From assembly GCF_041248615.1 (NCBI RefSeq), contig NZ_CP158426.1: DNA of 64,000 bases; one strand, written 5' to 3'. A model generated the notes under the pieces. That model did not search any database, was not told the origin of the DNA, and saw only the letters and a list, made by a program, of their open reading frames with translations. The translations under genes were made by a program, and so were the position numbers. The DNA comes from Escherichia coli. Its GTDB lineage: Bacteria; Pseudomonadota; Gammaproteobacteria; Enterobacterales; Enterobacteriaceae. Shown here piece by piece: positions 21,837-60,430 of this stretch (within the stretch, counting starts at the first letter, position 1; the number at the start of each line of letters is the position of its first letter).

Positions 21837-29802
<7,966 letters not shown>

Positions 29803-30479: not shown

Positions 30480-31712
<1,233 letters not shown>

Positions 31713-38200: not shown

Positions 38201-38380
38201 ATTGATCTTCTTAGAAGTATTACCGTTAGATTCAACAAACAAATAATAATATCAACACATGACGACAATTTCTTTGGCTTGCTCCAACGTAAAATCCCTT
38301 CGGAAATATTGGGTGCCAAGTTTCTTAAATTGGAGAAATTTGGGGTTGTAGTGCCTGTTGATGATTTAAATAATACATGA
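35243..38380 (+). CDS. Rad50/SbcC/SMC-like ABC ATPase with central CxxC zinc hook (LmuB-like?)
   Basis: N-terminal Walker A (VAIYAPNGFGKSSFYD), Q-loop (VLSQDEI), long coiled-coil middle with CPLC at residues 524-527 of 1045 (nt 36812..36823), C-terminal signature-like FSAAQ, Walker B VIMIDDP, D-loop SMD and H-loop ISTHD. Confidence 0.8.
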   Translation: MKIKKVEIEGFRAYRFKEDGTFDFTNKDDTPSNFVAIYAPNGFGKSSFYDAVEWAITHNLDRFAGEYNKKNYEQAARSTKEDGVAQKILRNKDVPDNIPTRVTVFTTLPTPFEQSLGTVRSDSRDIRIGENKNKINGYFRKVVLSQDEIDRFLKEAKPQDRYKMFMESFGGEWEKARQELTILLNDNKAVLLNLEKNKNELQEQLDQPVDASTFIQFNKIASELVAEGESLPLVDETTIVNTQHELLEKIITRSHEINFSLNKKKILRDSISEYILKFPDISFRTTQIIEKKNRLEKINKGIEDVGRYKTFQSTLEKLTIEKKKISQSLNFIEELDGLSQEFLSLEFNLESARKKHREISYNYENEKTLLDNLFQTRNQNDADLSSIDKRCLSIRSTLENATVTYSNISNIQNKILNIVSTQTELEHKLNQVRSEYQKNKSELNKVSDLTITAKSLLSSDLSLIDLSSDLLKELNNLSQELNILVLHDQSIHNTQESLSAQMGVHERLIASGLEYLSLWPTNICPLCHKPHDSESSLREQVTNTDVISMLSKENAAKLEISSKRRSELNGKIESIVQKALEIKMSKLEVLSKKVNQQGNEIHREEQHYTALLAEKQSVQNQLNELQKAVAGLTKDELLARLDAELKELEAKKNEVIKNKLTLTKNINVKRTLITELSGAINLLNTQIHEMMSSSNYLKTKAYSEENGLSSEFLKEHYDDKRHFYLKNINGLNFEINNITSQLNDLQKAMIADEMWLDYEEMISEKENFEDYISKSEAVLQSYSSLLKQHFELPKYESLVELKDFLISSLDKETRLYNGLEERLGKYNLLSELLKTAESFVKSIKLQNDINETLGLIEIRKEVDLALTKERNQVIEELRNLIKSFFYEELINSIYKRIDPHPSLKKVVFRPDFDSSDKPGLNIVVSDEKGDMVSPILFFSAAQLNILSLSVFLASALHAKDDNGNVIDVIMIDDPIQSMDSINILSTIDLLRSITVRFNKQIIISTHDDNFFGLLQRKIPSEILGAKFLKLEKFGVVVPVDDLNNT

Positions 38381-42522: not shown

Positions 42523-42698
42523 TACGTTTTCCTCAGTAAGTCGCCGGGAGACAGCATGCCCGGTGTGCTTTTATCTTCATCCTGCAGGCAATCACAGGAC
42601 GAGCCGTTACATCACTGACAGTATGTGAGGCAACATAAATCCCCGTCTAATCACATTAACGACGTTTTTAATGTGGGATTGTTATCGAAAAATAGTGA

Positions 42699-43592
42699 TT
42701 GGAGGAACGTGTGGACTATCGGTATTTGCATGCATTTGTGGTGCTTGCCAGAGAACTGCATTTTGGAAAAGCCGCACTGCGGCTCAACATCACGCAGCCA
42801 GCCTTAAGCCGTCAGATTAGAGTGCTGGAAGATCAGCTTGGCATGGTGCTATTTACGCGTGATCGTCGTCATGTGGCGCTGACTGTGGAAGGAACTCAGC
42901 TTGCAGCGGAGGCGCGGAGCGCCGTCAGTCATTACGAAAAAATGCTGAGCCGTGCGAGTAGCCTTCGAAAAGGCTATAAAGGACAACTCATACTGGGTTA
43001 TGTCGGATCTTCCATTCTTGATCCCGCCCTGACACGGTTAATCACCTGTTTTCGCGAGACTAAACCGGATGTTGAGATTGTTATTGAGGAGCACAACGTT
43101 GACGAACAGCTCACCCTCCTGCTCGACCATCAACTGGATATGGGGCTGCTCCGATCGCCTGTTCCGCATTTTGCCAACCTGGACTACGTGGATATCGCCA
43201 CCAGGTCACTCATCGCCGCAGTACCGCACACGCATCCGCAGGCAGGAGTCGGTAAAATAGAGCTGGAGACGTTGTCCGGGGATACATTTATGATCCAGAA
43301 AGATCCGCCCGGGGTCGGGCTAGGCTGGTCTGCATTACATGCCTGTGAGATGGCCAGTTTTGTCCCACCCAAAATCTATTTTACTCGCGATGTTGCGGTG
43401 GCTATTGGCATGGTGTCGATGGGAATAGGAGTTACGCTGGTGCCAGAAACCCAGCGTTCTGTAACGTTGCCTAATGTCTGCTACTGCCTGCTGCACGATC
43501 CCGAGGTCACAACGACCTTAACGCTTTGCTGGCCGAAATTCAGGAAAAGCAGGGAATTGATAGAGTTTGTACGCTCTTTAACGCTTGGTTGA
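42699..43592 (+). CDS. LysR-family transcriptional regulator, divergent from the decarboxylase operon
   Basis: N-terminal LysR HTH (FGKAALRLNITQPALSRQIRVLEDQLG) plus substrate-binding domain; divergent arrangement typical of LysR regulators. Confidence 0.8.
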   Translation: MEERVDYRYLHAFVVLARELHFGKAALRLNITQPALSRQIRVLEDQLGMVLFTRDRRHVALTVEGTQLAAEARSAVSHYEKMLSRASSLRKGYKGQLILGYVGSSILDPALTRLITCFRETKPDVEIVIEEHNVDEQLTLLLDHQLDMGLLRSPVPHFANLDYVDIATRSLIAAVPHTHPQAGVGKIELETLSGDTFMIQKDPPGVGLGWSALHACEMASFVPPKIYFTRDVAVAIGMVSMGIGVTLVPETQRSVTLPNVCYCLLHDPEVTTTLTLCWPKFRKSRELIEFVRSLTLG

Positions 43593-44133
43593 ATCTTAAG
43601 AAGCTGCAGTTGAGTCATAGCCAGCGATCAAAATTGAGAAGACAAAACCGGGGAGAGGTGCCCGCAGTTTCTGCCCCAGCTCCCATCTTCAGGAAGATGT
43701 GTTTCAGGAATGCATTCGTGATGCTGGGGATAGCGGCAAGACGATTTTCTCATCGGGTAACTCTGCGGTATCGGAACAGTTGACGACGGCAGGGTGGTGA
43801 ATGGGAACCTCAGGATGAAGCGCTCGGGCAAGAGGGATGGACTGTGCTGAAGAGAACACTGACAGAACGAGCATGATGCTTGCAAAAAGGGGACTCTGGA
43901 TATTCATTGTTTATCTCCTGATGATATTCATCGCTCCAGAGAATACGCTTGCCACTCTTTTTATTTGTTTTCCTGAATTAAAAATGCCCGGTTTTATGTG
44001 GTTCTTCCGTAAACGTTATTACATTAATTAACATCTAGTTTCTATCTCCGAAATGAGGTAAAAAAATAATTGTCGTGGTTTTTATCAAACAAATTTACCG
44101 GCAGCTCAGATCCGAACTAATACCTGGAAATTC

Positions 44134-44182
44134 AAACCCCAAACCCCAAACCCCAAACCCCAAACACCAAACCCCAAACACC
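44134..44182. repeat. Heptanucleotide microsatellite (AAACCCC/AAACACC) x7
   Basis: Direct reading: aaacccc x4, aaacacc, aaacccc, aaacacc; opposite strand is G-rich (GGGGTTT)n. Confidence 0.95.
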
Positions 44183-44412
44183 ATTTCACCGCTGGCGTGT
44201 AAGGGGCTCTATATCTGTTTATTCAGGGATAGTTTTTTCTCCCGTGTGATTTCCGTTCATGTATCTGCTTCCGGTTAATCGTTTCCCAGCACAACCCGTC
44301 CCGCAAGGGTAAATGGCACGCCTGCTGCGCCCTTGCGGGATGGAACGATGCCGGGAAAGCGAACCGTCAGGCGATACGAAGACGAAAATCACACCACTGA
44401 CGGAGAAAAAAA

Positions 44413-45357
44413 ATGACTATGTCCCTGCATACCAAGATAAGTGCCCCTAACACGACAGCGGCGACCAGCGTATCCTCGCTGGATCTGTCAGGCTCCTCAA
44501 AAACGAAATGTTCAACAGCCAGAACCGATATTTATCAGACTGTTACCGACAGCATAATTGCGGCGCTGGAAACCGGAGTAAAACCTTGGGTGTGTCCTTG
44601 GCAGCGAGCTCCCGGTATGTCCGGTTTACCGTCCAATTACGCCACTGGTAAGGCTTACAGCGGAATGAATATCATGTTGCTTTGGTGCAGCGCGTCAAAA
44701 CAGGGATTCTGTGATTCACGCTGGATGACCTACAAACAGGCAAAAGCGGTAGGTGGGCAGGTGCGCAAGGGAGAACACGGCACTACCGCGATTTTCTATA
44801 CCACGCTGGAAAAGGAAAATGATAACGGAGAAACTGACTATATTCCTATGCTGAAAGCATTCACTGTGTTTAATGTTGAACAAATTGACGGTTTACTCCT
44901 GAGTGATGATGCCGTTTTTCCGGCAGAGATCTTTGAGCCATTACCACGTGCAGAAGCACTTTTTCGTAGTAGCGGTGCAACCATTATTGAAAAAGGACAG
45001 AATGCTTTTTTTACACCATCAACCGACGAAATTCGCTTACCTGAACGGTATCTTTTTATTGATGCTGCTAATTTCTACGCAACCGGCCTGCATGAGCTCG
45101 TTCACTGGAGTGGGGCAAAAAGTCGGCTGAACCGTGAAATGAAAGGGAAATTTGGCAGCGAGGGGTATGCGTTTGAAGAGTTGATCGCTGAGCTGGGGAG
45201 CGCATTCCTGATGGCGGATCTGGGGATAGTTGGAGAAGTTCTGCATGACAGTTATATCGCTTCCTGGCTTAAAGCACTGAGGAATGATAAACGCTATATT
45301 TTCAAGGCCGCCAGCGCGGCATCGAAAGCACATCGCTATTTGATGGATAAAAGCTGA
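44413..45357 (+). CDS. ArdC-like anti-restriction protein (N-terminal ssDNA-binding domain plus HExxH metalloprotease-like domain)
   Basis: 314-aa ORF; HELVHW motif in the C-terminal half; architecture and size fit ArdC/DUF1738 proteins of conjugative elements. Confidence 0.6.
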   Translation: MTMSLHTKISAPNTTAATSVSSLDLSGSSKTKCSTARTDIYQTVTDSIIAALETGVKPWVCPWQRAPGMSGLPSNYATGKAYSGMNIMLLWCSASKQGFCDSRWMTYKQAKAVGGQVRKGEHGTTAIFYTTLEKENDNGETDYIPMLKAFTVFNVEQIDGLLLSDDAVFPAEIFEPLPRAEALFRSSGATIIEKGQNAFFTPSTDEIRLPERYLFIDAANFYATGLHELVHWSGAKSRLNREMKGKFGSEGYAFEELIAELGSAFLMADLGIVGEVLHDSYIASWLKALRNDKRYIFKAASAASKAHRYLMDKS

Positions 45358-46200
45358 GTAGCAAAAAGCCGCAAAGGAATGCGGCTTAATGGGCTGGGGG
45401 TACTAAACCAGTAAAGGTTTAGTCAGTAATATTAGTGAAGCAGAGCAAGTATCGAACAGTCATATTCCTGTAGTGGTATTAAGACAACCTTAAGAAGGGA
45501 CTGATGTATAGCTACTCTTGTATACCCATCCATGGAAAATTCGGTTGTATTGCCGGGTTGATATGTGCAGGTTGGTCCCGACCCAAGAAGTTTTTACTGT
45601 GAAAATTGTCAAACTATATCAATGTGGTAACAGCTTCTCTTGTCCCTTTGGTTATTTCAAATTGGACCGGGCTATCTGTTGCAACACGGTTGCTCTGCTT
45701 GAAACAGAGTTAACATATGCAACATCAGATACTTTGAGTTTGATCAGATCATAGCCTCGTAGCTTACTGTCCAAGGTCATATTGAACAGAGTTAAATCGC
45801 GCATTTTACCTTCCATTTCAAGCCTGATTCGGATCCCCCCTGATATGAGATATCTGAAGTGGTCTTTTTGGTCAGTGATACTTACAATACGGTCTTTGTC
45901 CCACGGTGACGTGTTCATACTCAAAGCTCCTGTAATGTTGGAGATTTGAGCATGGTTATCCCTCATGAGCGAGGAACGGACAATGTCCCTTGCGCGATCC
46001 AAGATTGATTTTTCTTATTAAATTAAGCTATGGCTGACCTACGAACGATAGGCAAAATGCTCCTAAAGCTACGGCTTATGACAGTAAAAAACATATTGAT
46101 AAAAATCTGAGCTGGTTTAGAATGCTATAATGGAATAATTATTTATTTTCGGCCTTCAGTTTGATCATTTTTAGAAATCACCCTTTTGAAGGAATCTACA

Positions 46201-46995
46201 ATGGAATCAGAAGAAACGAAAGAAGAGAGTTATCAACAGCGTTCGGAGTTTATCAGAAAAATAATTCAACAGCCTGTTGAGGGTGTCATATCTTCATGCA
46301 CTATACCAAAAAAAATAATTCAATTTTGGGATTCATCCAATACTATCCCTAATGATGTCAGACATTGCATGAAATCATGGCGTATCTTAGAACCTTTTGG
46401 GTATGAGTATTTACTATATGATTTCGTTAGCGCCCAAGAATTTATTAAACATAATTTGGGTGAAACATACAGTGAAGCTTTTGCCAAGTGTACTCATCCT
46501 GCTATGCAATCAGATTATTTCCGATTATGTTATATCTCGGTAAACGGGGGATTTTATGTTGACACTGATGATGTTTATCTGGGTAGTGAGATAAGTAGTT
46601 TTTTCACGGATGATAAGTTAAAAATACAACCTTTATGCTACGATATTTCCACCGATTCTATGATTCCACCAGAAATTTTTACAAAGGAAAATACTTATGA
46701 AGAATCTTGGATTTTTTATTTCAACAACAACCCGTTAATTGCTCCGCCTCATCATGTTATCATTGATAAGGCACTAGAGCAATCCACATACTTACTTAAT
46801 AAATCAAGCTATCCTCTCACAGATATTCAGTCAACAACTGGTCCTGGTAATCTATCTAAATCTATTTTCTCGTGTCGCGAGGAAATAGATTTATTATCCC
46901 AGATTACGGTAGTATCAAACTGGCAAGATATTGCAGAAACTAAGTGGGATTTAGAATACAGAGCTGATTCTAGAAATTGGCGCTTGATGAATTAA
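46201..46995 (+). CDS. DXD-motif glycosyltransferase (Gly_transf_sug-like)
   Basis: QFWDS...AMQSDYFRLCYISVNGGFYVDTDDV motif pattern; GAAGGAA RBS before ATG 46201 (track start 46186 is TTG); AT-rich. Confidence 0.55.
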   Translation: MESEETKEESYQQRSEFIRKIIQQPVEGVISSCTIPKKIIQFWDSSNTIPNDVRHCMKSWRILEPFGYEYLLYDFVSAQEFIKHNLGETYSEAFAKCTHPAMQSDYFRLCYISVNGGFYVDTDDVYLGSEISSFFTDDKLKIQPLCYDISTDSMIPPEIFTKENTYEESWIFYFNNNPLIAPPHHVIIDKALEQSTYLLNKSSYPLTDIQSTTGPGNLSKSIFSCREEIDLLSQITVVSNWQDIAETKWDLEYRADSRNWRLMN

Positions 46996-47010
46996 CATGG
47001 ATTTTTAATA

Positions 47011-49212
47011 ATGAACATTAAAAATAATTTGAAAGGTATTAGCCGTTTTTTTTATTCTTTTTACTTACGCTCTCGGTTACTTCTCCCAGCGCAAAAATCA
47101 TCGACCTTTAATACATTAAATCAGAATGAAGGCGTTATTAGCAGGATTTACGCTATAAACTTAGAACGGGAAGCGATTAGATGGGCAGATTTAAATAAAG
47201 AACTGGGTAAAATACTAGATAAATCTAATAAAAAATTAACGAGCCAATTAACCAGATTCTCTGCTATAAACGCCAAAGAAATGTCAGACATTCTCAATGA
47301 GGAAGAGGTTATTCCTTATTATACTTTAGCAGACCAGTTGTACGTTGACCCTCAACCAAAAATCTTACCCGATAAATTTGATCTCGATGTCCCTATAAAA
47401 ATGAGTAAAGCGGAAATTGCTGTAGCATTATCGCATCTAAATGTTATTAGGCTTGTTGCAGAAGGTTCTGATGCATATGCTTTAGTGCTTGAGGATGACG
47501 TGTATTTTGAAAGAGATTTTGCCAAAACCTTAGATGCTGCTTGGTCTGAAATGATTCAAGCTGACAGATCTTCACCTGGTTTTGATATCTTATATTTGTC
47601 ATTTAAAGAGGTTATGAATGGCGCGAAAAAGAAAATTATTTCGAAAAGCATATTTAAACCAGAGCGAGGGTTATGGTATTTTTCAGGATATGTATTATCT
47701 AAGAAAGGAGCAAATAAAATCCTCTCACTCCTCCCAACTTATGGACCAATTGACTTATGGATAAATCATCAATTTGAGAAACTCGATGTGAGGGCAGTAT
47801 ATAAGTCGATCATTTCTCAGAGGTTGGATTTTAACTCTTCAAATTCCTATTCAATATTACCTACCTTAGTGAAGATTGGTATTATTGACAATGAAAAAGC
47901 TTCCAGTTTTAATGAACTTCCAAATTATTGGCCTGTTTTTGCATTTGGTGTAAGTGGTTCGGGTATTTCTTCTTTGGGTATGGCACTATCAATGCTTGGC
48001 TATAAGTGTTGTAGTGATATTGATAGACTTCCCAATGCAGACTTAAAAAATCTATTAAGTAATTCAGAGCAGAATGAATTCAATGCTTATGTAAATGTTG
48101 GCTGTCTCAGTAAGTATATCGGCATATTAAAAAAACAATATCCAAAAGCAAAATTTATAATTACCACGAGTGAATCAAAAGAAATCGAAGATGTTATTTT
48201 TAATATAATTGAGGAGATCGTTGATACTGACTATGTTGTATTGCATTCAGATGAAAAAAACAAATGGAAGGTTATATGTGAATACCTTCAATGCCCACCA
48301 CCTATTTCAGCGTACCCAGAAATGGCTGACATTATTCCTAGGCAGATTATAGATATCACCAGTGCAGCACAAATCAATAATTCAGAAATTAACATGATAC
48401 ATGACATTTCCCCTTGGATATTAGAAAGAAAGAATTTTTCAGGAAATGGTTTTTTTATAAAAGATAATCCGAAGAGAATTGAAAAAGAGCTTGCTGATTT
48501 CTTCATTAATGATTCACTACAAAATATTAATAATAACTATTGGGAAATTCGCGATGATACTTTCCCTGGAAATCTTGGACTGTTTCGACCTCAAAATGTG
48601 ATTCAAAATGATATTAGTGGTTTAGGTCTTGTAGTTAAGGAGGAACAGTTAGGCGTTAGAGAGTTTAGTGCTGCTGCGATTTCAAGTAGAATGAAGTTCC
48701 TATATGGCCGATTTGAAGTGTCCCTACGAGCGGCAAATGTTGCAGGGATAGTAACCGGCTTCTTTTTACATAGAGATTCGCCTCGTCAAGAAATCGATAT
48801 TGAGTTTGTTGGAAATCGATCTGATCATATGTTGATCAATGTTTTTTATAATCCTGGTGATGAAGGTGCAAAGTTTGATTATGGATATCGTGGTACACCA
48901 ACTCTTATTCCTTTAGGTTTTGATGCTTCTGAAGAGTTTCATGATTACATGATTGAATGGAGTCCTGATGAGATAAAATGGTTTGTGGATGGAGTTATGG
49001 TTTATCGTAGAGGAGTTTGGGGGCCTACACCTATACCTCATTTACCCATGACCCTTCATGCTAACACTTGGCCAACCCGTTCCAAGGAACTGGCGGGACG
49101 TCTCCACACGCGTTCCTTACCCTGTATCACTTATATTAGGAAAATATGTATTGATGCAACAATGGATGTTAATAATCCAAAATTAAATGACCAGACAGTA
49201 GTGGCTGGTTAA
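47011..49212 (+). CDS. Multidomain protein: N-terminal GT25-like glycosyltransferase, central P-loop-like region, C-terminal GH16-like domain
   Basis: N-terminal YAINLEREAIRWADL...LSHLNVIRL resembles family-25 LPS glycosyltransferases; C-terminal EIDIEFVG matches the GH16 ExDxxE catalytic motif; AT-rich. Confidence 0.5.
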   Translation: MNIKNNLKGISRFFYSFYLRSRLLLPAQKSSTFNTLNQNEGVISRIYAINLEREAIRWADLNKELGKILDKSNKKLTSQLTRFSAINAKEMSDILNEEEVIPYYTLADQLYVDPQPKILPDKFDLDVPIKMSKAEIAVALSHLNVIRLVAEGSDAYALVLEDDVYFERDFAKTLDAAWSEMIQADRSSPGFDILYLSFKEVMNGAKKKIISKSIFKPERGLWYFSGYVLSKKGANKILSLLPTYGPIDLWINHQFEKLDVRAVYKSIISQRLDFNSSNSYSILPTLVKIGIIDNEKASSFNELPNYWPVFAFGVSGSGISSLGMALSMLGYKCCSDIDRLPNADLKNLLSNSEQNEFNAYVNVGCLSKYIGILKKQYPKAKFIITTSESKEIEDVIFNIIEEIVDTDYVVLHSDEKNKWKVICEYLQCPPPISAYPEMADIIPRQIIDITSAAQINNSEINMIHDISPWILERKNFSGNGFFIKDNPKRIEKELADFFINDSLQNINNNYWEIRDDTFPGNLGLFRPQNVIQNDISGLGLVVKEEQLGVREFSAAAISSRMKFLYGRFEVSLRAANVAGIVTGFFLHRDSPRQEIDIEFVGNRSDHMLINVFYNPGDEGAKFDYGYRGTPTLIPLGFDASEEFHDYMIEWSPDEIKWFVDGVMVYRRGVWGPTPIPHLPMTLHANTWPTRSKELAGRLHTRSLPCITYIRKICIDATMDVNNPKLNDQTVVAG

Positions 49213-49490
49213 TCATTAGAGTGAAAAGTAAATATTAGTAAGGCACTGGTAAAAATGTAGACACTATCAGTGCCTTAGTAGTTATCCCTCTGGATGGTTT
49301 TTTGACAATAATTTCCGTTTCTGGCACGGAACGGACAGAAAGCAGGGCCACCAAATCTCTCACGAGCCAAAAACCTAAATTATGATCTGACAGATACATG
49401 TATCAATGAAACTGTCGCTGTCAGATCAATTACGCCTTACTATCTGAAAATTATTTGATTTTCTGCATCGTGCATTCAAATTAACAATGT

Positions 49491-50342
49491 TCAGGAGGCA
49501 TAAACTGAAAGGAGTTCTTTAGCTGCCAATTGACCAAGTGCGTTGGCTGCAAAAGGACTGTCACCTGTCAGTACCTTACGATCTTTGTATACGCTTCCTT
49601 TAATATCATCATTAACAATATTCATCCCCATTTGCTTAAGTGCATCGCCAAAATACCATGTGAGATGGCCCGGCATATAACCAATGTCAGGCGTCTGCTT
49701 ATCAGCTGAATCAGGGAAAGCGCAAATAGAATACTCTTTTAGAGGGTTTTCACCATTGCGCAGCGAAAGGAATGCTGCTGGGCCATGGCAAAGGGATATG
49801 ACGAAGCGGTCATTGTCCATGAACCAGCGAAGAGTATCGGCTACTGCGCTGCTTTCTGGCAGCCCAATCAGTGCGCCGTGGCCACCAGGAATAAACACGG
49901 CAGCATATTCACTTTGCTTGTTCAGGCTATTCAATACATCAGACAATTTTTCAGGATTTTGGAACTTGTCTCTATACCGGCTGAAAAATGGCATAACTTT
50001 CTCATCCTTGTGCGGCATGGCCCAGTATTCGAACTTTGTCATGTAACCTGAGATTGTCGCAATGTCAAAATCAAAACCAGCAGCATGCAGGTGATACATT
50101 GGAATAAGCGTTTCAACAGGATGGTTTCCCGTTGAGAACAGAGCCCCGCTATCAGTCATCAGGTAACGCTCATCCGCAGCGATGACCAGCACCTTCTTCC
50201 CTCCCATGCACTGTTTGGGATAGTCGTAGTCACTAAGGTCAGATACGGGGCTGGTAAACTGACTAAGGGAATAGTCAGAGGGGAAAAATGCGTTTTCTTC
50301 AGCATGATCCACTTTCGGATGTTTACTTTTATCATTTGTCAT
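49491..50342 (-). CDS. HchA/Hsp31-like glyoxalase (DJ-1/PfpI family), island-borne paralog
   Basis: ORF 49491..50504; start placed at ATG 50342 (MTNDKSKHPKVDHAEENAFFPSDYSLSQFTSPVSDL...), 283 aa, strongly resembling recalled E. coli HchA including ...SLCHGPAAF...; the longer ORF reads into the IS2 end. Confidence 0.85.
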   Translation of the reverse strand: MTNDKSKHPKVDHAEENAFFPSDYSLSQFTSPVSDLSDYDYPKQCMGGKKVLVIAADERYLMTDSGALFSTGNHPVETLIPMYHLHAAGFDFDIATISGYMTKFEYWAMPHKDEKVMPFFSRYRDKFQNPEKLSDVLNSLNKQSEYAAVFIPGGHGALIGLPESSAVADTLRWFMDNDRFVISLCHGPAAFLSLRNGENPLKEYSICAFPDSADKQTPDIGYMPGHLTWYFGDALKQMGMNIVNDDIKGSVYKDRKVLTGDSPFAANALGQLAAKELLSVYAS

Positions 50343-50514
50343 TACGTATTCCTCGTTGATTGGTGTTAACTCTCTTTCTCGGGCCTGAATTCGCCTGTTA
50401 TATGGGCGACCAGGATAGCCTGATAGACTGGCCCCATGAATCTCCAGACAACCAATATCACTTAAATAAGTGATAGTCTTAATACTAGTTTTTAGACTAG
50501 TCATTGGAGAGCAG

Positions 50515-50880
50515 ATGATTGATGTCTTAGGACCGGAGAAACGCAGACGGCGTACTACACAGGAAAAGATCGCTATTGTTCAGCAGAGTTTTGAACCGGG
50601 AATGAAGGTCTCCCTTGTTGCCCGGCAACACGGTGTGGCAGCCAGCCAGTTATTTCTCTGGCGCAAGCAATACCAGGAGGGAAGTCTTACTGCTGTGGCC
50701 GCAGGAGAGCAGGTCGTTCCTGCCTCTGAACTTGCTGCTGCCATGAAGCAGATTAAAGAACTCCAGCGCCTGCTCGGCAAAAAAACGATGGAAAATGAAC
50801 TCCTTAAAGAAGCCGTTGAATACGGGCGTGCAAAAAAGTGGATAGCGCACGCGCCCTTATTGCCCGGGGATGGGGAGTAA
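50515..50880 (+). CDS. insC: IS2 transposase OrfA (InsC)
   Basis: [53 protein letters not shown]... matches recalled IS2 InsC. Confidence 0.85.
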
Positions 50881-51743
50881 GCTTAGTCAGCCGTTGTCTC
50901 CGGGTGTCGCGTGCGCAGTTGCACGTAATTCTCAGACGAACCGATGACTGGAAAGATGGTCGCCGCAGCCGTCACTCAGATGATACGGATGTGCTTCTCC
51001 GTATACACCATGTTATCGGAGAGCTGCCCACGTATGGTTATCGTCGGGTATGGGCGCTGCTTCGCAGACAGGCCGAACTTGATGGTACGCCTGCGATCAA
51101 TGCCAAACGTGTTTACCGGATCATGCGCCAGAATGCGCTGTTGCTTGAGCGAAAAACCGCTGTACCGCCATCGAAACGGGCACATACTGGCAAAGTGGCC
51201 GTGAAAGAAAGCAATCAACGATGGTGCTCTGACGGGTTCGAGTTCCGCTGTGATAACGGAGAAAAACTGCGAGTCACGTTCGCGCTGGACTGCTGTGACC
51301 GTGAGGCACTGCACTGGGCAGTCACTACGGGCGGCTTCGACAGTGAAACAGTACAGGACGTCATGCTGGGAGCGGTGGAACGCCGCTTCGGCAACGAGCT
51401 TCCGGCGTCTCCAGTAGAGTGGCTGACGGATAATGGTTCATGCTACCGGGCTAATGAAACACGGCAGTTTGCCCGGATATTGGGGCTTGAACCGAAGAAC
51501 ACGGCGGTGCGGAGTCCGGAGAGTAACGGCATAGCAGAGAGCTTCGTGAAAACGATAAAGCGTGACTACATCAGTATCATGCCTAAACCAGACGGGTTAA
51601 CGGCAGCAAAGAACCTTGCAGAGGCGTTCGAGCATTATAACGAATGGCATCCGCATAGTGCACTGGGTTATCGCTCGCCACGGGAATATCTGCGGCAGCA
51701 GGCCAGTAATGGGTTAAGTGATAACAGGTGTCTGGAAATATAG
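50838..51743 (+). CDS. insD: IS2 transposase OrfB (InsD, DDE integrase domain)
   Basis: 301-aa ORF overlapping orfA in another frame, as in IS3-family OrfAB arrangement; DDE-type catalytic region. Confidence 0.85.
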
Positions 51744-52342
51744 GGGCAAATCCACCTGAGTAGTGGTAGTCTCTTCCATACGGTTGCGTACGTATCTCAG
51801 GTGGTTTGCTACAGCATGCGGAGATAGTCCCAGTAAACCAAGAACCACTTTAGCTTTTGATGACTCATACCCCCAATCTGAACACTCCTTTAATACCCAT
51901 ATTGCCGAATACAGGAATCATAATGTCGTGCAAAATACCACTAACAAAATTATGACAATTTAATAACTTTGAACGTGGCTTTGTGTTCCAGTTTTATGCC
52001 AGGAGAAATCATTCGATATCTTTATAAAATATCGTTCTAACTGTAAGTAATTAATATGATTTTTCTCATAAAAAAACTTAAAATCAGTTAACTTCAGCCC
52101 GGAATATGCGTTCACTGAGCGGCCTCTTCATGAACGAAACCGAGAAAAAATAGGCTACAGTCACAACCACACTGTAGAGCAACTTCTCTCACGTGCTGTT
52201 TCAGAGAATAGATCTTCTTGCATCTGAAGAATGGTATCCAGAGCTATCCTGATCACCCCTGAATGCAATAGTTGCGTATACTAGGCGCATGACAGAATCA
52301 TAAAATGAGAGCTATCCCTTATTATCATGACTTCAGTAAAAT

Positions 52343-53098
52343 TTAAATTTGCATTGAGGTAGCGATATCGAGACGTTGCAGTTCGTCAATCGTGTAGATG
52401 CGGAACACATTCCTGTGGCGGGTTTCCAGTGGGATGTGTTGATGATTCACGATGACGTACTGGATGCTGTCAAACAGCCGTTCAAGACCGAGTTTTTTTT
52501 GCGGGTCTGGCACAATATAAAAAACGTAGATCCAGTCTTTACGCGTTCGGGCCAGTAAATGACTGGCTATGATCGACTGGTAACGGGCTTTGGTTTTCAG
52601 ATGGCGCTCGGTCTCGATGGCGATCACCGTGCCGCTGGGGAGGGCAATTAGCCCGTCCGGGCGGTGACTGACCTGATAACGACTCAGGAAAGTTGTGCGA
52701 TCGCCATGTATCCAGCCGCATGCGCCTTTTTTTTCGAGGATGATCCGCGCCATCTGATTATCAAGGTGATGTTCCAGCGTCCAGCCTGTGAGTTTTGAAG
52801 GCTCAAACCGGGCCGGGAAAATTTCATCATCAGGCTGTATTACGACCGCCAGCCCGTCGTTGGTTATTCCCCACAATGAAATTTTCTTCGTACGTGATAC
52901 CAGGACGTGTTTTTGTATTAACCCCATTCCCTCAACTTTTGAAAGCAGGGAATACAGTGATTTATGATCCCTGAAGCCGAACAGCAGCATCAGTGTTGTA
53001 AAATCACTGTACGTTTCTTCTTTCAGGAAATTCAGCAGTCGTATTATCTTCTCGCGATGTCGGGTCTGGCGCTCGCGGTATGCGGTGATAAGCATCAT
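52343..53098 (-). CDS. Hypothetical wHTH-containing protein adjacent to T4CP gene (relaxosome/replication-relaxation-like?)
   Basis: 251-aa ORF immediately downstream of the coupling protein gene; N-terminal segment looks like a winged helix; possible PD-(D/E)xK-like RPDG...IAIETERHLK; family not confidently recognised. Confidence 0.35.
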   Translation of the reverse strand: MMLITAYRERQTRHREKIIRLLNFLKEETYSDFTTLMLLFGFRDHKSLYSLLSKVEGMGLIQKHVLVSRTKKISLWGITNDGLAVVIQPDDEIFPARFEPSKLTGWTLEHHLDNQMARIILEKKGACGWIHGDRTTFLSRYQVSHRPDGLIALPSGTVIAIETERHLKTKARYQSIIASHLLARTRKDWIYVFYIVPDPQKKLGLERLFDSIQYVIVNHQHIPLETRHRNVFRIYTIDELQRLDIATSMQI

Positions 53099-53106
53099 TT
53101 CCCCTT

Positions 53107-55032
53107 CTAAAAGTTCAGTAACGAGGGATGATCCTCTTTACCTGCACCTGCACCTGCACCTGCACCTGCACTTGTTGTTGTGTGTTTCTCGTCCGGCTTG
53201 TCAAAAAAGAGATCGGGTTGTGTTGTCGTGATAACTGATGTTGATGACGGTCCGGATGACATTTCTTCCTCGTCAAAATTCAGGGCAATGTTGACTCTTG
53301 CGGCGGTGGCGGCAACAGCGGGCGATACGGCACAGATCGCCAGTTCCCTTTTTTTAACCCTGATGGGAGAAATTAGTGAAGCAGAGGGGAGGGCTTTGGT
53401 GGTGAATATAAAACTGACAAAATCAGGCAGGTTCAGCACCATATTACTGTCGATAAAGAAACGCTCGGCCTGCCTGATGGTGCGTTCACTATCGATAGTC
53501 TCTGTCAGCACCGCATCTGTTTTGGCTTTGCGGACTTCGTCATCGACTAATATGGTGCCTGACATTCTTGCCACCCAGTCAGCGGTATCAGGGTCCATGA
53601 CACGATAAACCAGCTTGAATTTGGCATTCTCCACAACTGCACCCACCACGGCATCGCTTTTCAAATCCGCCGGGCAATCTTTTAAATCGGCAATGGATTG
53701 GTGGTCCATAATAATGTGTACACCTTTATCCCGTGCCGCACCTAAGCCTTCCAGCGCAGGCTTGGATAAATGGTATTTCAGTTCGGAAAGGTAAATAGCA
53801 ATAGGGCGGGGTGTGTGGTTTACCCGATCGCGCCTTTCTGCCAGCTGGTACAGGCGAACCAGCAGCATGCGCTGAGCGGTAATAATTTTGCTGTTGCGCA
53901 TCGAGCCAATCACATAGCAGCAACCACCGTTATCAAATATTGTATTGAGGGAAAATCCTGCCGGTGCATTGATGGCATTGAGTAAGGCCAGCTCCTCAAT
54001 TTTCCCGAAAAAGGCTTTTATCTTATCAGCGATACTTTGGACGTATTCCCCGTTATACACATCCCGAATGGTTGAGGTCGTATTACGGGCGACAAATTGT
54101 GCAGCTATTCGGGCTGCTTTGCGATCGTCAATGCGATAAAAGTCAGACTCTTGTCCTTTCTCTGCCAGACTGAAACCCGCGACAAAAAGTTCTTCCAGTT
54201 CATCAGCGGTGATATCGTTAATCAGGTTTAGCTGGTATGCCTGTTTCCTCAGGTCAATTAGGGCAAAGGATTTCCCTGCATCCTCGCAGGCTTTCCGGTA
54301 AAGGTGTGGGGCCCACTCATCATCTTTGGGGTCCATAACAAATACGCCTTCACCGGCCAAAATACTCTGATAAAGTAATATCCCGGTGGCCACCCCTTTA
54401 CCGGCCCCCGTGGTCCCGATGATATCGGCATGTTGTTTTTGCCAGTCTTTTAACGGCAGGTACATCGGCTGTTTCATTCTGTTCATGCCGATAAAAATAC
54501 CTTTACTCAGGTTAATATAATCCTCCGGGTTATAGTGCAATGTTTCCGGTAGCAGCGATTTCACCGTTCGGACATCAGTACGTAATTCCCTTTCCAGAGT
54601 GGTTTTTCTGACGAACCGACTTTTTACTTTATCGAGTTCAGGTGTTAACACCCTGCGCAGAAGAATATGGAAAACAAAACCGGCTGCGGTAGAGGTAATC
54701 AGTATCAGCCAGGAGAGGACAGTATTGCTGGTGGCTATCTTTATTCGGTATATCCATTGAAATAATTCGTTCACCACGGGCGCTATTGTGCCAAACAAAA
54801 AGCACAGTATGGAAAAAACTATCACCAGCTTTTTCCATAAAGGGGCTTTGAGTCGTTCATCGCTTTTCATCGACGCGAAGAATGGCATGGTCAGCCCTGA
54901 GAATAGCGCCAAAATAGGTTGATGCTGGTGCATAAAAACGAGCAGTCCCAGCATGCCGTCCACTATCGGTGATAGTGAAACGATCAGCTTATTTAACACC
55001 ATAATGCTTCCTTTATCGGCCATTCGCCCCAC
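53107..55032 (-). CDS. virD4: Type IV coupling protein (VirD4/TraG-like ATPase)
   Basis: N-terminal hydrophobic segments, Walker A IIGTTGAGKGV, DPK motif (VFVMDPKDDEW); C-terminal (Ala-Gly)5 tail. Confidence 0.75.
   Translation of the reverse strand: MGRMADKGSIMVLNKLIVSLSPIVDGMLGLLVFMHQHQPILALFSGLTMPFFASMKSDERLKAPLWKKLVIVFSILCFLFGTIAPVVNELFQWIYRIKIATSNTVLSWLILITSTAAGFVFHILLRRVLTPELDKVKSRFVRKTTLERELRTDVRTVKSLLPETLHYNPEDYINLSKGIFIGMNRMKQPMYLPLKDWQKQHADIIGTTGAGKGVATGILLYQSILAGEGVFVMDPKDDEWAPHLYRKACEDAGKSFALIDLRKQAYQLNLINDITADELEELFVAGFSLAEKGQESDFYRIDDRKAARIAAQFVARNTTSTIRDVYNGEYVQSIADKIKAFFGKIEELALLNAINAPAGFSLNTIFDNGGCCYVIGSMRNSKIITAQRMLLVRLYQLAERRDRVNHTPRPIAIYLSELKYHLSKPALEGLGAARDKGVHIIMDHQSIADLKDCPADLKSDAVVGAVVENAKFKLVYRVMDPDTADWVARMSGTILVDDEVRKAKTDAVLTETIDSERTIRQAERFFIDSNMVLNLPDFVSFIFTTKALPSASLISPIRVKKRELAICAVSPAVAATAARVNIALNFDEEEMSSGPSSTSVITTTQPDLFFDKPDEKHTTTSAGAGAGAGAGKEDHPSLLNF
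53141..53170. repeat. Hexanucleotide repeat (CCTGCA)x5 inside the 3' end of the T4CP gene
   Basis: cctgca repeated 5 times in frame, encoding AGAGAGAGAG at the protein C-terminus. Confidence 0.95.
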
Positions 55033-55552
55033 GACATCGCCCCCTCAATTCGCCCCACGGTGTTGGGCGAAAAGCTGGGGTGAAAGCAGGGGCAAACAGA
55101 GGTGGCTGCGGTGCAGCCATGTGCCGGTAGATAGACTTTCCGGCCCGAAACGACGTGCACCAGTTCATGCGGGCTGGACGCCCTTATTGCCTGGCGCATG
55201 GGGGTAATGGCGTGGCTGTACGCCGCGCCAAAACCCCCAGGGTCAACGGCGGCACACCGTCGCCCGCTACGCGCGACCAACCCCTTTAAGACGCGCGTTT
55301 CGCCTGTTTTTTTCTCGCAAGCTCCAAAAAACGGGAACGCTGCTTTAAAGGGGTTGGTCGCGCCTGATTGGTAATATCCCCGCTGGGGCGGGAAATATTA
55401 CCTGGCTTGACGGTGTGCGGGGCAAGCCCCCCACAAAAAACGGCACGTGGGCGTGCCTTTTTGCTCGCTGGGGCGGCAAAATTTTTGCGGCTCCCCCGGC
55501 CTGCTTAATTCGCTGTGGGCGAATGTGCGCAGATGGATGCGGTACCTGAAAA

Positions 55553-55633
55553 TTAACAATTTCTGCGAAATTGAATTTTCTGTCCGCGTTCCACTGGCTT
55601 ATTTCACGGCTTAACAATTTCTCCGAAATTGAA
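55553..55633. promoter_or_regulatory. Two copies of palindromic operator-like site TTAACAATTTC(T)GCGAAATTGAA upstream of the T4CP gene
   Basis: 55553..55575 and 55611..55633 differ at one base; each contains inverted repeat caatttc-N3-gaaattg; lies in a 680-bp non-coding gap. Confidence 0.4.
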
Positions 55634-55709
55634 GCCAGAAATTAGCCAGCCTCAACCCCGCCGTCTGTCAGTCTGTGGCGCTGTGAGGCATAGTGTAATG
55701 TCCGGTGGT

Positions 55710-56015
55710 TCACACCTGTTCGCGATATATTTCAGCCCGGCATTCCTGTTCAGCCTTTAATACCTCCCGGTAGGTTTCATCATCGACTTTCGTTCCCTGA
55801 TTTTCGGCGTATCGTCTGAGTTTGTCAGCATCCTGTTCATTAAGACGCGAAAGATGATGTCGCAATAAACTGATCAGTCTACTTTCATAGATCTCATAGT
55901 AAAGGCCGCATCCCTGATTCGCTTCCTCAGAGAACTTTCTGTACACGGCTCCGACCGATATTCTGTCATGATGCATTGAGTGGATGTTGGAAATAAAAAG
56001 GTTTTCTTTATCCAT
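55710..56015 (-). CDS. Hypothetical protein (101 aa)
   Basis: ORF only; position between TrbM-like gene and T4CP. Confidence 0.3.
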   Translation of the reverse strand: MDKENLFISNIHSMHHDRISVGAVYRKFSEEANQGCGLYYEIYESRLISLLRHHLSRLNEQDADKLRRYAENQGTKVDDETYREVLKAEQECRAEIYREQV

Positions 56016-56063
56016 ATTTATTTCTCCCCAAAAAAAGGTACTAACATAATGGCCGGGGGGTTA

Positions 56064-56366
56064 TTATCCTCTGAGCCTACCAAATCTGGACAGGATTTTA
56101 TTCACCGCCTCTGGGTCGGCACTGGCACATTCTCCGAGGAAAGCTTTTCTGGCATTCAGTGTATGACCGGGTAAAAATCCGTGTTTATTCTTTTTGACGA
56201 TATTAAAGAAAGTTTTTTCAGCTGAATGGCACTCACTCCCTCCACTGTTTCCGGTCGCTTTCCCGTACATACAAAGCACGACTTCGCATGGGTCAGAGGC
56301 GAAGCAATAAACAGGGAGCACAATGGCAATGCACAGCATTACCGTCGCAATGGAGGCGTATTTCAT
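56064..56366 (-). CDS. Secreted TrbM/KikA-like protein (putative)
   Basis: 100-aa ORF with N-terminal signal peptide and conserved Cys pattern (DPCEVVLC); position after virB11 as in IncN-like transfer regions. Confidence 0.4.
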   Translation of the reverse strand: MKYASIATVMLCIAIVLPVYCFASDPCEVVLCMYGKATGNSGGSECHSAEKTFFNIVKKNKHGFLPGHTLNARKAFLGECASADPEAVNKILSRFGRLRG

Positions 56367-56410
56367 GATGAAGTCCTTACCATAATTTCTGTACCAGGAT
56401 ATCGGTATAT

Positions 56411-56806
56411 TTAATGTGAAAAATAAATATAGGTATCGCTACACGTCAGGCACTGAGTTGCAGGTTGATATTCAATAACACCATTTGCGCCATGCTGGCG
56501 AAGCCAGCTTGTTGCAGTAAAGAATGCTGTGCCTGATGGTGCAGCAACAACAATACGCGTCGAATGCGCAACTGCGTAAAATACGTCGGGGGTCCAAAGT
56601 GTCTCGTTAAACTGCGTTGAGTGAACGGACAATAACCACTTCCCATTAACGATTGGGGAAGGATTAATAACGGGGGTGTCATTCCATTGCGATAAATTGA
56701 TATTCACTGACTCGCCCGATTTATCCCATTCAACAGATACCGGTGGGGGTGGTGACGAACAGCCGGTAAGCACCATTAAAAATAACAGTATATTGATGGT
56801 TTTCAT
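56411..56806 (-). CDS. Lipoprotein of unknown function in T4SS operon
   Basis: Lipobox LTGC after signal peptide (MKTINILLFLMVLTGCSSPP); start overlaps virB11 stop. Confidence 0.5.
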   Translation of the reverse strand: MKTINILLFLMVLTGCSSPPPPVSVEWDKSGESVNINLSQWNDTPVINPSPIVNGKWLLSVHSTQFNETLWTPDVFYAVAHSTRIVVAAPSGTAFFTATSWLRQHGANGVIEYQPATQCLTCSDTYIYFSH

Positions 56807-57849
56807 TATGCTTTCATCTCCTCGAAGAAGGCATTACGGTGCAGTGGCCGGAAATAGATATCATTCATTCGGCGCACGTTGCCGTCTAAATCAATACTGA
56901 CAATAACATCCAGACTGTCCAGCACTTTGCGTAACATAAACGTGTAGGGCAGCCGGGCGCATTGTGGGTTTTCATAACAGCGAGTAATAAAACCGTCTAC
57001 CGCTTCTATTGCTGAACCCGCATGCAGGGAAGTCATACTGCCTTCATGGCCGGAGCCGGTTATTTTGAGAAAATCCCAGGCTTCACCACCGCGCACTTCG
57101 GTTAACAATATACGGTCGGGGTTCATGCGATAATTCCAGCGCAGAAGACTGGCTGGCGTCACAATCGAGCCTTTTTCATCTGCTGATTCGGACGGATAGA
57201 AGAGGTGGACATAGTTTTTATGAACAAAAAAGGTGATTTCCGGATTATCTTCAATGGTCGTAATACGCAAATGGCGAGGAATAAAACCAATCAGCATCTT
57301 CATGTAGGTTGTTTTCCCGGTACCGGTTTCCCCGGCCACCGCGATAGTTTTACCGTACTCCACGCACTTCTCCATAAAGCGCGGGATATCTTTGGCGGTA
57401 TACAGGCTCAACAATTCCTGATCGTGCGTCTGGGTGGTTTCTGAGCCCGTCACCCTGTTATAAAAACCGGCGTCGATATAGCTCTGGTGGGGAATTTGTA
57501 CCTGTGACGGCTTTCGGATAGTAATGGAGACGGTGTTGCGCTCACAGGCCGGAGGGACAATAACCTGACAACGTTCACCGGATTCCAGCGTGGCTGACAG
57601 CCCCGGTTTGATATCTTCAATATTGTCGCAGTGATGCTTTGCCAGGCATCTGGCGAAGTTGTAGCACCCCTCATAATCCAGCGAAACACTGTGCAGCTCC
57701 CAGATACCATTAATTTTGGTAAATAGCTCGCCCGGGCGGTTGACGGCGATTTCTGTTAGTCCAGGATGAGCAATAAAATCGCCAAAAAATCGCTGTGTAT
57801 AGCGATCGAGAGAGATGTTTTTCATGTGATATCCTTGTATCGGATACAT
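56806..57849 (-). CDS. virB11: VirB11-family T4SS ATPase
   Basis: Walker A GETGTGKTT, Walker B-like RILLTEVRG, His box GSMTSLHAG; 347 aa. Confidence 0.85.
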   Translation of the reverse strand: MYPIQGYHMKNISLDRYTQRFFGDFIAHPGLTEIAVNRPGELFTKINGIWELHSVSLDYEGCYNFARCLAKHHCDNIEDIKPGLSATLESGERCQVIVPPACERNTVSITIRKPSQVQIPHQSYIDAGFYNRVTGSETTQTHDQELLSLYTAKDIPRFMEKCVEYGKTIAVAGETGTGKTTYMKMLIGFIPRHLRITTIEDNPEITFFVHKNYVHLFYPSESADEKGSIVTPASLLRWNYRMNPDRILLTEVRGGEAWDFLKITGSGHEGSMTSLHAGSAIEAVDGFITRCYENPQCARLPYTFMLRKVLDSLDVIVSIDLDGNVRRMNDIYFRPLHRNAFFEEMKA

Positions 57850-57862
57850 TTGTGGAGGGAGT

Positions 57863-58870
57863 ATGTCGAAGACGAAAGTACTGTTCGCTTATTGCCATGA
57901 ACTCGGGCGCTGTTTGTCCATTGATGAAGCGCGAATGGAATTTTTTTCCAGAAAGCCGGAAGAAAGGAAGCGGTTCACTTTTTCATGTAGCGATCGCAAC
58001 TGTGATGTCACCATTAGCGGTGTTAACTATCACGTCAAAGCTGAAGATGGTGAGAAATTCAAGGCTGCGCACTTCCGTTCACCTCATCCTCACAAGTTCG
58101 GATGTGAATGGCTCGAATTCACCGAGGATGCGGATCAGGACCGGCGTCCAGACGAGTCAGAGGCTGATTTCACAGAACGAAAAGCAAAGCAAAAGCTGAC
58201 GGACTATATCAACTGCTTTGACCCTTCAATAGATGATCCTGATGGCGAACCATCCGATCCCGTGAAGCTTGTTACGCCTGTTCACACAAGAAAAACTGTC
58301 GGGGATGATGATAAAACGGGTACAAATGAAGAGCCCCGCTGGAGTCGCTACACGCGAACCAACCAGCTTCAGCGACTTATCGACACATGGCAGGAAGCGA
58401 AAGAAACGCTGCCTCAGGATGAGTTCCGGGCGTTGAGACTCAGGATCATGCACCATGATCAGGTCTATCTACATGAATATATAACGCATATACAGCGTGG
58501 ATTGGCTAATCCGTATTCGGGCGTCATCTATGGTGGTGGGACCCTAATGCATCGGTATGGTCGGGGTTTTCTGATTAATTTCTTTGATAAACATGAGGGG
58601 AAGCCTGTTCGCCTGTATGTCAGTAAAGATCTGATGGCGAAAGGACGGTTTGGTCATTATATCGATGAGATTCTGGACACTAAAAACGTCAGATATTTCC
58701 GTATATTTTTACTCAATCCGGTTGTTTCCGAACGGGAAAACAGCACAGGAAAAAGCGTTATCAACCTTGAAATATCAAAGCTGCGTCAACTGGCTATTTA
58801 CTACGAACTGAACTCCAGCAGAGAAGATGAATCTTCATCGGTGGAGACGGAGGGGGAAAGTCCGGCGTAG
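57863..58870 (+). CDS. Hypothetical protein (335 aa) encoded antisense inside the T4SS operon
   Basis: Only long ORF on either strand across 57860..58800; acidic stretches; no recognised domain. Confidence 0.45.
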   Translation: MSKTKVLFAYCHELGRCLSIDEARMEFFSRKPEERKRFTFSCSDRNCDVTISGVNYHVKAEDGEKFKAAHFRSPHPHKFGCEWLEFTEDADQDRRPDESEADFTERKAKQKLTDYINCFDPSIDDPDGEPSDPVKLVTPVHTRKTVGDDDKTGTNEEPRWSRYTRTNQLQRLIDTWQEAKETLPQDEFRALRLRIMHHDQVYLHEYITHIQRGLANPYSGVIYGGGTLMHRYGRGFLINFFDKHEGKPVRLYVSKDLMAKGRFGHYIDEILDTKNVRYFRIFLLNPVVSERENSTGKSVINLEISKLRQLAIYYELNSSREDESSSVETEGESPA

Positions 58871-59187
58871 CGGGCTAATGTTGTCACAAGAATGAGTATA
58901 TCGGTGACGTCAGGCAGCGATATCTGCTTATGTGCCAGCCGGATATCGTCCGGGGAAAAAGGCGGTGCATCCAAAGGGCCTTCACTGATGGTGATACAGA
59001 ACGGTTGCTCTTCTCCTGAGTCAATACTGAGTTCTATCAATGCGCCCCCGGCACGATAGCATGTCATGACTATTCTTCTGATTCCGGTAAGGTGTGACAG
59101 TAAGTCGTTGACGACAGCGTTGCTGAAATCGTCCCTTACGATGACGTCTGTCGCCGTAACACCAAACAAAAACTTTCGATTACTCAC
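58801..59187 (-). CDS. Hypothetical protein (128 aa) downstream of virB10
   Basis: ORF start overlaps virB10 stop by 8 nt, suggesting co-transcription; no recognised motif. Confidence 0.35.
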   Translation of the reverse strand: MSNRKFLFGVTATDVIVRDDFSNAVVNDLLSHLTGIRRIVMTCYRAGGALIELSIDSGEEQPFCITISEGPLDAPPFSPDDIRLAHKQISLPDVTDILILVTTLARYAGLSPSVSTDEDSSSLLEFSS

Positions 59188-60430
59188 TCTTCATCCTCAG
59201 CGTGTAGATGCCTGAAAAATCAATATCCTGCCCTGTGACCAGGTTGATGATTTCACCCTGATTTTTGTAGAGCGTCGGTGGGATATTAATGCTGTTTTCC
59301 AGCGTGGTACGTGCCATATCCGCCATAGCCTGACGGCTGTTTTCTGTATAGTCGGTATTCCGATCTTTCTGACCGGCGCTGTTGGATGCCCATGCCCCAA
59401 TATCAGGGATCATACCGACCAGTAATGCACCTCCAAATCGCTCCCTGAAATGCGAGTCTATCCAGCCATCAACGCCAGCCTCGCCCAGTTCTCCGGCAGC
59501 ATTCGTATCGACCAGCGGAATATCAAGGAAAGGGGGCTGGCGGGTACGCAGTTTCGTGATGATGATGAATGCGCGTCCCTGTCCATGCGTCATTCCTGTT
59601 TCTGCACCAGTCTGGTACATCCCCGTGGCGGTGGTCCCTTTTTCTATCAGCTTTGTATTACCGCTGGCGCTCCAGATGTCTTCGGCGATCGTGCAGCGGA
59701 TTTTTCCAGCCCGATCTGAGACAAAACGGTAATCCAGTGAGCAGGGAATAGCGGTATTTTCCGGCACGTACAGATCGGGATTATAAGGAATTCGCCGGAC
59801 CGCTGTCGGGGACTGTTCCGGCTGTGGCGACGAGGTGTTTAGCGGCTGACCGGTATCAGAATATTGTGTCTCTGACGGCTGTCTGGCTGAGGATGCCTGC
59901 GTCATTTCCTGATACCGGGTCCGTACCGGATTTCGTACCGCTGAACCTGAACCCTCCCGGCGCACCAGAAAACGGGCTTTATCTAAGTCGGGCAGAGCCT
60001 CCGATCCGTTGGGTGTCGTACTACCAGGGTTGTTGTCCGCCGGTTCTGGTGTTTTCGCGTCGATATAGTGCGTACCCAGATCGGTACGCTGTCGAGAATC
60101 GGTCCGATCTGTCGGGGCCACAGTTTCCTGAGGCTTTTCTTTACCTGGCTGCCAAAGAAGATTGTGGTATATCCAGTTACCCCCCCACGCCAGTGCAATC
60201 AGGGCAACGGCAGCGAATGCCAGAAAAGCGGTGGCTTTCCCCTGCTGGCGCTTTTTCAGTTTATTGACAGCCGGCTGTATTGGATCGTTATTGTCATCAT
60301 CCTGCCAGGTGTGAAGCACAGCTTCACGCTTTGCGCGGGCCTCGCGCTCAAGCGCAGCAATATCATCATCCTTCTGTGTCGGACAGGACCTGGATTCATC
60401 TGGCACAGGATGCAGATGTTCGTCATTCAT
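59180..60430 (-). CDS. virB10: VirB10/TrbI-family T4SS protein
   Basis: N-terminal cytoplasmic/TM segment, Pro-rich linker, C-terminal VirB10-type domain (…GAETGMTHGQGRAFIIITKL…VDGWIDSHF…). Confidence 0.8.
   Translation of the reverse strand: MNDEHLHPVPDESRSCPTQKDDDIAALEREARAKREAVLHTWQDDDNNDPIQPAVNKLKKRQQGKATAFLAFAAVALIALAWGGNWIYHNLLWQPGKEKPQETVAPTDRTDSRQRTDLGTHYIDAKTPEPADNNPGSTTPNGSEALPDLDKARFLVRREGSGSAVRNPVRTRYQEMTQASSARQPSETQYSDTGQPLNTSSPQPEQSPTAVRRIPYNPDLYVPENTAIPCSLDYRFVSDRAGKIRCTIAEDIWSASGNTKLIEKGTTATGMYQTGAETGMTHGQGRAFIIITKLRTRQPPFLDIPLVDTNAAGELGEAGVDGWIDSHFRERFGGALLVGMIPDIGAWASNSAGQKDRNTDYTENSRQAMADMARTTLENSINIPPTLYKNQGEIINLVTGQDIDFSGIYTLRMKSE

Follow-up and report, generated by a model that had tools for sequence, protein, structure and literature searches.

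A recent IS2 insertion between mobC and an island-borne hchA gene in Escherichia coli NRZ14408

In a 64,000-nucleotide stretch of Escherichia coli DNA (referred to as the window in the rest of the text), a copy of IS2 separates the mobilization gene mobC from a paralog of hchA carried by an integrative and conjugative element (ICE). Did this IS element reach its present place by a recent and simple transposition, and what would its presence immediately upstream of hchA mean for the transcription of that gene? The explanation that we put forward, and in which we place considerable confidence, is a recent IS2 insertion between mobC and the ICE-borne hchA that most likely lowers hchA transcription.

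Structure and insertion site of the IS2 copy

Alignment with IS2A of E. coli K-12 (NC_000913.3, positions 381260-382590) revealed 60 substitutions over 1331 bp and not a single indel, corresponding to 95.5% identity. By convention an IS2 isoform is ~1331 bp long, colinear with the reference and at least 95% identical to it at the nucleotide level, a line that the present copy clears narrowly. Both imperfect terminal inverted repeats, ending in ...CA-3', are present and have the lengths reported for IS2 (IRL, 42 bp; IRR, 41 bp; PMC3299598), each differing from its K-12 counterpart by one substitution (IS position 13 in IRL and IS position 1305 in IRR). OrfA matches the NCBIfam model NF006928 ("IS2 repressor TnpA") with 273.5 bits (cutoff 229), and OrfB matches NF006918 ("IS2 transposase TnpB") with 700.8 bits (cutoff 597), the Pfam rve match in OrfB spanning profile positions 3-102 of 102. 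Neither reading frame contains a stop codon, and the products differ from those of K-12 by 1 amino acid in OrfA and 13 in OrfB. The heptamer A AAA AAG lies in the X XXY YYZ register relative to orfA, which overlaps orfB in the -1 frame; RefSeq annotates the joined coding sequence (50515-51743) as "IS3 family transposase, programmed frameshift". With its full length, both terminal repeats, orfA, orfB and the A6G site all intact, the element is a complete IS2, as a first-pass annotation of this DNA had stated, and belongs to a common isoform near the 95% naming edge. This copy is probably still active, as an identical second IS2 in the same chromosome and the strain-specific insertion indirectly suggest. 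We found no further copy or fragment of IS2 within the window.

Table 1. Position of the IS2 copy, its insertion site and the neighboring hchA region in the window.
Feature	Coordinates	Strand	Basis or remark
hchA paralog (glyoxalase III / Hsp31 family), 283 aa, intact	49491..50342	-	NF003168 and K-12 comparison
Artefactual 337-aa ORF (hchA plus 54 codons reaching into IRL)	49491..50504	-	Start ATG inside the IS2 left end
Native upstream DNA still joined to hchA, 81 nt: RBS GAGGAA and proximal block	50343..50423	-	
Target-site duplication, left copy CCTGA	50419..50423	.	Occurs once in IS-free alleles
Complete IS2 (IS3 family), 1331 bp	50424..51754	+ (transposase genes)	Indel-free alignment to K-12 IS2A
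IRL of IS2, 42 bp, sequence TAGACTGGCCCCATGAATCTCCAGACAACC...	50424..50465	+	Faces the hchA paralog
orfA (IS2 TnpA/InsC), 121 aa	50515..50880	+	NCBIfam NF006928 and Pfam HTH_Tnp_1
Slippery heptamer A AAA AAG (A6G), -1 programmed frameshifting from orfA to orfAB	50832..50838	+	Register check
orfB (IS2 TnpB/InsD, DDE integrase core), 301 aa	50838..51743	+	NCBIfam NF006918 and Pfam rve, rve_3, HTH_21
IRR of IS2, 41 bp	51714..51754	+	Faces the 3' end of mobC
Target-site duplication, right copy CCTGA	51755..51759	.	Direct sequence reading
Distal part of the conserved block, now parted from hchA by the IS	51760..51866	-	Alignment of relatives
Best promoter-like element, extended -10 TGTCATAAT (predicted)	51949..51957	-	Beyond the IS

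The structural steps of the insertion can be read directly from the junctions and from related alleles. The left junction reads ...GATAG CCTGA followed by TAGACTGGCCCCATGAATC, and the right junction reads GGGGCAAATCCA followed by CCTGA GTAGTGG...; the stretch 50419-51759, which reads CCTGA + TAGACTGGCCCC...GGGGCAAATCCA + CCTGA, is the IS plus both copies of the duplication. The chance of meeting a particular 5-mer again at one defined position is ~1/1024. To look for the empty site, we joined both flanks with one CCTGA and ran this 605-bp query against 5426 complete E. coli genomes. The locus was found in five of them, only one of which, NRZ14408, carries the IS. An empty site identical to the query over all 605 bp (100%, in a single piece) was recovered from 2018-06-4CC (NZ_AP021893/AP027889) and YF-1 (NZ_CP161809), while the match in A38 reaches 94.4%. 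Without the IS, the site has the sequence ...GGATAGCCTGAGTAGTGG..., in which CCTGA occurs once. Once the IS and one CCTGA are removed, the window aligns with 2018-06-4CC as a single 15.6-kb block with 99.87% identity, and the nearest difference lies more than 1 kb away from the insertion site, indicating that no other rearrangement took place at the insertion.

Positions 41120-59426 of the window are 100% identical to positions 2092791-2111097 of the E. coli NRZ14408 chromosome (NZ_LT599825.1), in which we counted 13 IS2 matches in all. A second IS2, 100% identical to that of the window, occupies positions 100990-102320 of this record, inside another disrupted gene. IS2-like sequence is present in 4881 of the 5426 complete genomes, and copies at least 99% identical to the window isoform occur in 1012 records. 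Given the CCTGA duplication, the IS-free alleles, the colinear island and the identical IS2 elsewhere in the chromosome, we conclude from sequence comparison that the insertion reflects a genuine and simple transposition that occurred recently in the NRZ14408 lineage. The first-pass annotation had described a CCTGA target duplication, had called the transposition recent and had proposed a comparison with IS-free alleles of the island. Both claims held: two copies of CCTGA occur here against one in the IS-free alleles, the uninterrupted site is present at 100% in three assemblies, with flanks identical to those of the window, and a perfectly identical IS2 resides elsewhere in the chromosome. 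The occurrence of IS2 at 13 places does raise the question of whether a repeat copy was misplaced in the NRZ14408 assembly, repeats being a classic source of misassembly. However, both junctions are exact and the flanks show no rearrangement. Moreover, the target occurs once in IS-free alleles and is perfectly duplicated here over 5 bp, as is characteristic of real transposition; we give hardly any credence to an assembly artefact.

The hchA paralog and its conjugative island

The gene adjacent to IS2 codes for a protein that matches the HchA equivalog model NF003168 with 484.6 bits (cutoff 365) across residues 2-281 and shares 75% identity with K-12 HchA over its full length. Cys185, His186 and Asp214, which we take to be the catalytic triad in Hsp31 residue numbering, are all aligned identically between the two proteins. 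Substitutions in hchA across five loci number 19, 13 and 79 at the first, second and third codon positions, respectively (p = 2e-16), and this excess at third positions indicates that the paralog is a functional gene under purifying selection. The core hchA gene of NRZ14408 is also intact, beside hprRS (positions 2181901-2182752 of the record), which makes the island gene a redundant xenolog.

From the ATG of the paralog (position 50342, minus strand), 76 nt lead to the duplication and 81 nt to the IS end. The first-pass annotation had placed the insertion 77 bp upstream of an HchA-like gene, a distance that is right within counting convention, and its identification of the neighbor as an HchA paralog agrees with the model match and the K-12 comparison. 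It had also dismissed a 337-aa open reading frame as a read-through into the IS end. Indeed, this frame starts at an ATG at position 50504, in the left (IRL) end of the IS, that has no Shine-Dalgarno sequence before it; it is in frame with the real gene of 283 aa, which RefSeq annotates at 852 nt. The 337-aa "HchA" should stay unannotated.

On the minus strand, the gene for the type IV coupling protein (T4CP) is followed by mobC (52343-53098), a spacer of 664 bp in the intact allele and hchA. These genes are part of an ICE-like island that encodes a type IV secretion system of the VirB type. A tRNA-Asn gene with an adjoining tyrosine integrase gene lies outside the window (NZ_LT599825.1, 2133527-2133602), and at window positions 30109-30130 the 3' end of tRNA-Asn recurs as a 22-bp direct repeat that is probably the left boundary of the island. 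The element between this repeat and the integrase-proximal tRNA-Asn measures ~52 kb and runs past the end of the window. Klebsiella oxytoca assemblies and several metagenome contigs share this backbone, and hchA occupies the corresponding position in them.

Several other features of the island and its surroundings were recorded. Just inside the left end lies a frameshifted IS3-family transposase pseudogene (30488-31640) without DNA similarity to IS2. The cargo at 32390-38380 includes, under their RefSeq names, a ComEC/Rec2-like gene and, after it, a large AAA ATPase gene and genes of an "ABC-three component system", and may be a defence module. A perfect ACCTGC array (53140-53171, 5.3 copies) in the 3'-terminal part of the T4CP gene encodes an Ala-Gly repeat; 2018-06-4CC has exactly one unit fewer, thereby revealing that the array is length-polymorphic. 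Just outside the island boundary, a giant gene of ~8 kb for a protein with Ig-like domains (21837-29802) is annotated as frameshifted (pseudogene). A second islet (5198-15829) lies beside another tRNA-Asn gene (5198-5273), is bounded by a 20-bp tRNA-Asn repeat (15810-15829) and contains frameshifted integrase genes as well as genes for an RHS core protein (10735-14916) and a TPR protein.

The region upstream of hchA and the predicted effect on transcription

IS2 is inserted in a block of ~190 bp directly upstream of hchA, of which the two parts now flank the element (Table 1; positions 9224-9411 in locus L002). Among the E. coli, K. oxytoca and metagenome loci, the block shows 85-98% identity, compared to 72-88% for the DNA further upstream, and the 81-nt leader of hchA is 96-100% identical among relatives. 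Conservation of the block alongside hchA extends to five related loci, including one that is not part of any ICE. The insertion point lies in its most invariant stretch, containing the short inverted repeats CCTGAG...CTCAGG.

In some relatives the block is annotated as a hypothetical open reading frame of 62-86 aa that ends 23 nt before the hchA ATG; in the window the equivalent frame is interrupted by the IS, and a 48-aa fragment is left. We rejected the view that this frame is a remnant of a LuxR/GerE helix-turn-helix protein, the Pfam GerE scores being 12-14 bits (E = 0.036-0.17) for a cutoff of 23.5. GerE is the sole Pfam match for the window fragment and for P0001 and one of two sub-threshold matches for P0002, whereas P0003 and P0004 have none. 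A PDB profile search with the frame returned no significant match, and its homologs number only four, all short. A coding gene was likewise rejected: variable sites in the block are spread over the codon positions as 13, 10 and 9 (p = 0.67), compared to 19, 13 and 79 for hchA, indels shift the frame in the N-terminal parts, and the starts vary. A structured RNA leader or riboswitch found no support either, with a folding z-score of +0.82 and 0 of 48 predicted pairs covarying; a search of the block against Rfam gave no match. Since its identity exceeds that of the DNA further upstream and it accompanies hchA outside the ICE, we regard the block as conserved non-coding DNA that may be a relic or may have a regulatory function.

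The block also occurs with an hchA xenolog (90% nucleotide identity) outside any conjugative element in three Logan contigs (L014-L016, from SRR30347331, SRR30144280 and SRR13837210, positions 2537-4094), where the neighbors are a divergent AraC-type regulator gene and DUF2000/YetF genes. Loci of this type may be the chromosomal source of the hchA cassette.

Scans of the IS-carrying and IS-free alleles for consensus sigma-70 promoters and for terminators gave no match in either, and the top scores of a position weight matrix promoter scan of both alleles were no better than those of shuffled sequence. The promoter mapped for K-12 hchA is not transferable to the island gene, as homology between the two stops at the ribosome-binding site. 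The best promoter-like element is the predicted extended -10 TGTCATAAT, located 270 nt from the hchA ATG in the IS-free allele. No other -10 match of 5/6 or better is accompanied by the extended TG, and the element reads TGTTATAAT, the full consensus, in K. oxytoca and in locus L010. A weak -10-like hexamer, TATCCT, is found 69 nt from the ATG within the retained 81 bp.

The effect on expression is what we infer from this arrangement. A probably active IS2 isoform resident in NRZ14408 has recently transposed, by the usual copy-out/paste-in route of the IS3 family, into the non-coding region between mobC and the horizontally acquired hchA of the ~52-kb tRNA-Asn ICE, duplicating CCTGA and rearranging nothing else. 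It lies 81 bp from the hchA start with IRL toward hchA and the transposase genes pointing away, leaving the hchA coding sequence and ribosome-binding site untouched while severing the gene from most of the conserved block, from the extended -10 candidate and from any read-through from mobC. As a result, transcription of this redundant second hchA copy would most likely be reduced or abolished. The position of the IS inside the conserved block and downstream of the only good promoter-like element favors uncoupling or silencing, and the orientation of the element, with IRL facing hchA and the transposase genes divergent, makes activation the less likely branch of the two that the first-pass annotation had allowed for, silencing of hchA or its transcription from an IS-derived promoter. 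We thus lean towards down-regulation of the island hchA, which is probably uncoupled transcriptionally from its upstream region.

A neutral insertion, with the hchA promoter lying within the retained 81 bp or with the island gene already transcriptionally silent, is possible, if distinctly less probable. The invariance of TATCCT, the high conservation of the retained segment and the want of any statistically supported promoter in the intergenic region would fit this account, as would the presence of the core hchA gene, which leaves little selection on the island copy. On the other hand, the -35 partner of TATCCT matches at just 3/6 positions in both alleles, conservation reaches well past the insertion point, to ~190 nt and more, and the strong purifying selection visible across hosts (19, 13 and 79 substitutions) argues that hchA is expressed in at least some of them.

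Activation or deregulation of hchA by the IS, through a hybrid promoter formed by IRL and the flank, through outward transcription from IS2 or through loss of a repressor or H-NS site in the block, appears improbable. IS2 is known to switch on its neighbors when the outward-facing -35 of its IRR comes to lie next to a -10 already present in the flank (PMC9330008, PMC3299598), and fusion promoters of this kind activate ampC (Jaurin & Normark 1983), acrEF and neoR (PMC9330008). However, it is IRL that faces hchA, so that the documented IRR route is unavailable to this gene. Even beyond IRR, a spacing of 17 bp leads to the hexamer CTGAGT, which fails as a -10. On the hchA side, the sole candidate at that spacing is TTCATG-17-TATCCT, which spans the IRL/flank junction, the -35-like TTCATG (3/6) being supplied by IRL. 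Residual or hybrid transcription could arise from this pair; it nevertheless agrees with the consensus at just 7/12 positions, and the median top score obtained from shuffled sequence is higher than its own. The splitting of an invariant stretch with inverted repeats would fit a lost regulatory site, and a further reading builds on the block itself, which would be a cis-regulatory element (an operator or a long 5' leader) whose disruption by IS2 deregulates rather than silences the ICE-borne glyoxalase III. We regard this last reading as more doubtful still; if true, NRZ14408 would gain constitutive extra protection against methylglyoxal and glycation stress.

Significance and comparison with known systems

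The case is an ordinary strain-specific insertion of a typical IS2, behaving as IS2 is known to, beside a typical HchA homolog. Its value lies mainly in annotation. It is also a clean example of IS2 having jumped recently in NRZ14408, which is a multidrug-resistant clinical E. coli. The three IS-free assemblies, which represent two strains (2018-06-4CC, assembled twice, and YF-1), offer a comparison for the effects of IS2 orientation on a neighboring gene.

The element itself resembles K-12 IS2A (insC1/insD1; IS3 family, IS2 group) in its length of 1331 bp, its 42- and 41-bp terminal repeats, its overlapping orfA and orfB, its A6G site and its 5-bp target duplication, which for K-12 IS2A is ATTAC on both sides. 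It differs from IS2A by the 60 nucleotide substitutions described above, which include one in each terminal repeat and account for one amino acid change in OrfA and 13 in OrfB.

Likewise, the island gene shares with the core E. coli hchA (b1967; Hsp31, glyoxalase III / deglycase 1) a product of 283 aa with 75% identity, the residues Cys185, His186 and Asp214 and the match to the HchA equivalog model. Their settings are different: the island gene adjoins mobC on a conjugative element, whereas the core gene adjoins hprRS, and the DNA upstream of the island gene bears no relation to the corresponding K-12 region except at the ribosome-binding site. The island locus is also rare, with occurrences in just five of the 5426 complete genomes.

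Finally, the present insertion is similar to the IS2 fusion-promoter cases at ampC, acrEF and neoR in that IS2 lies shortly upstream of a start codon. In those cases, however, the -35 of IRR is joined to a resident -10, whereas the island hchA adjoins IRL with the transposase genes divergent, and the flanks in the window provide no suitable -10 at the right spacing on either side.
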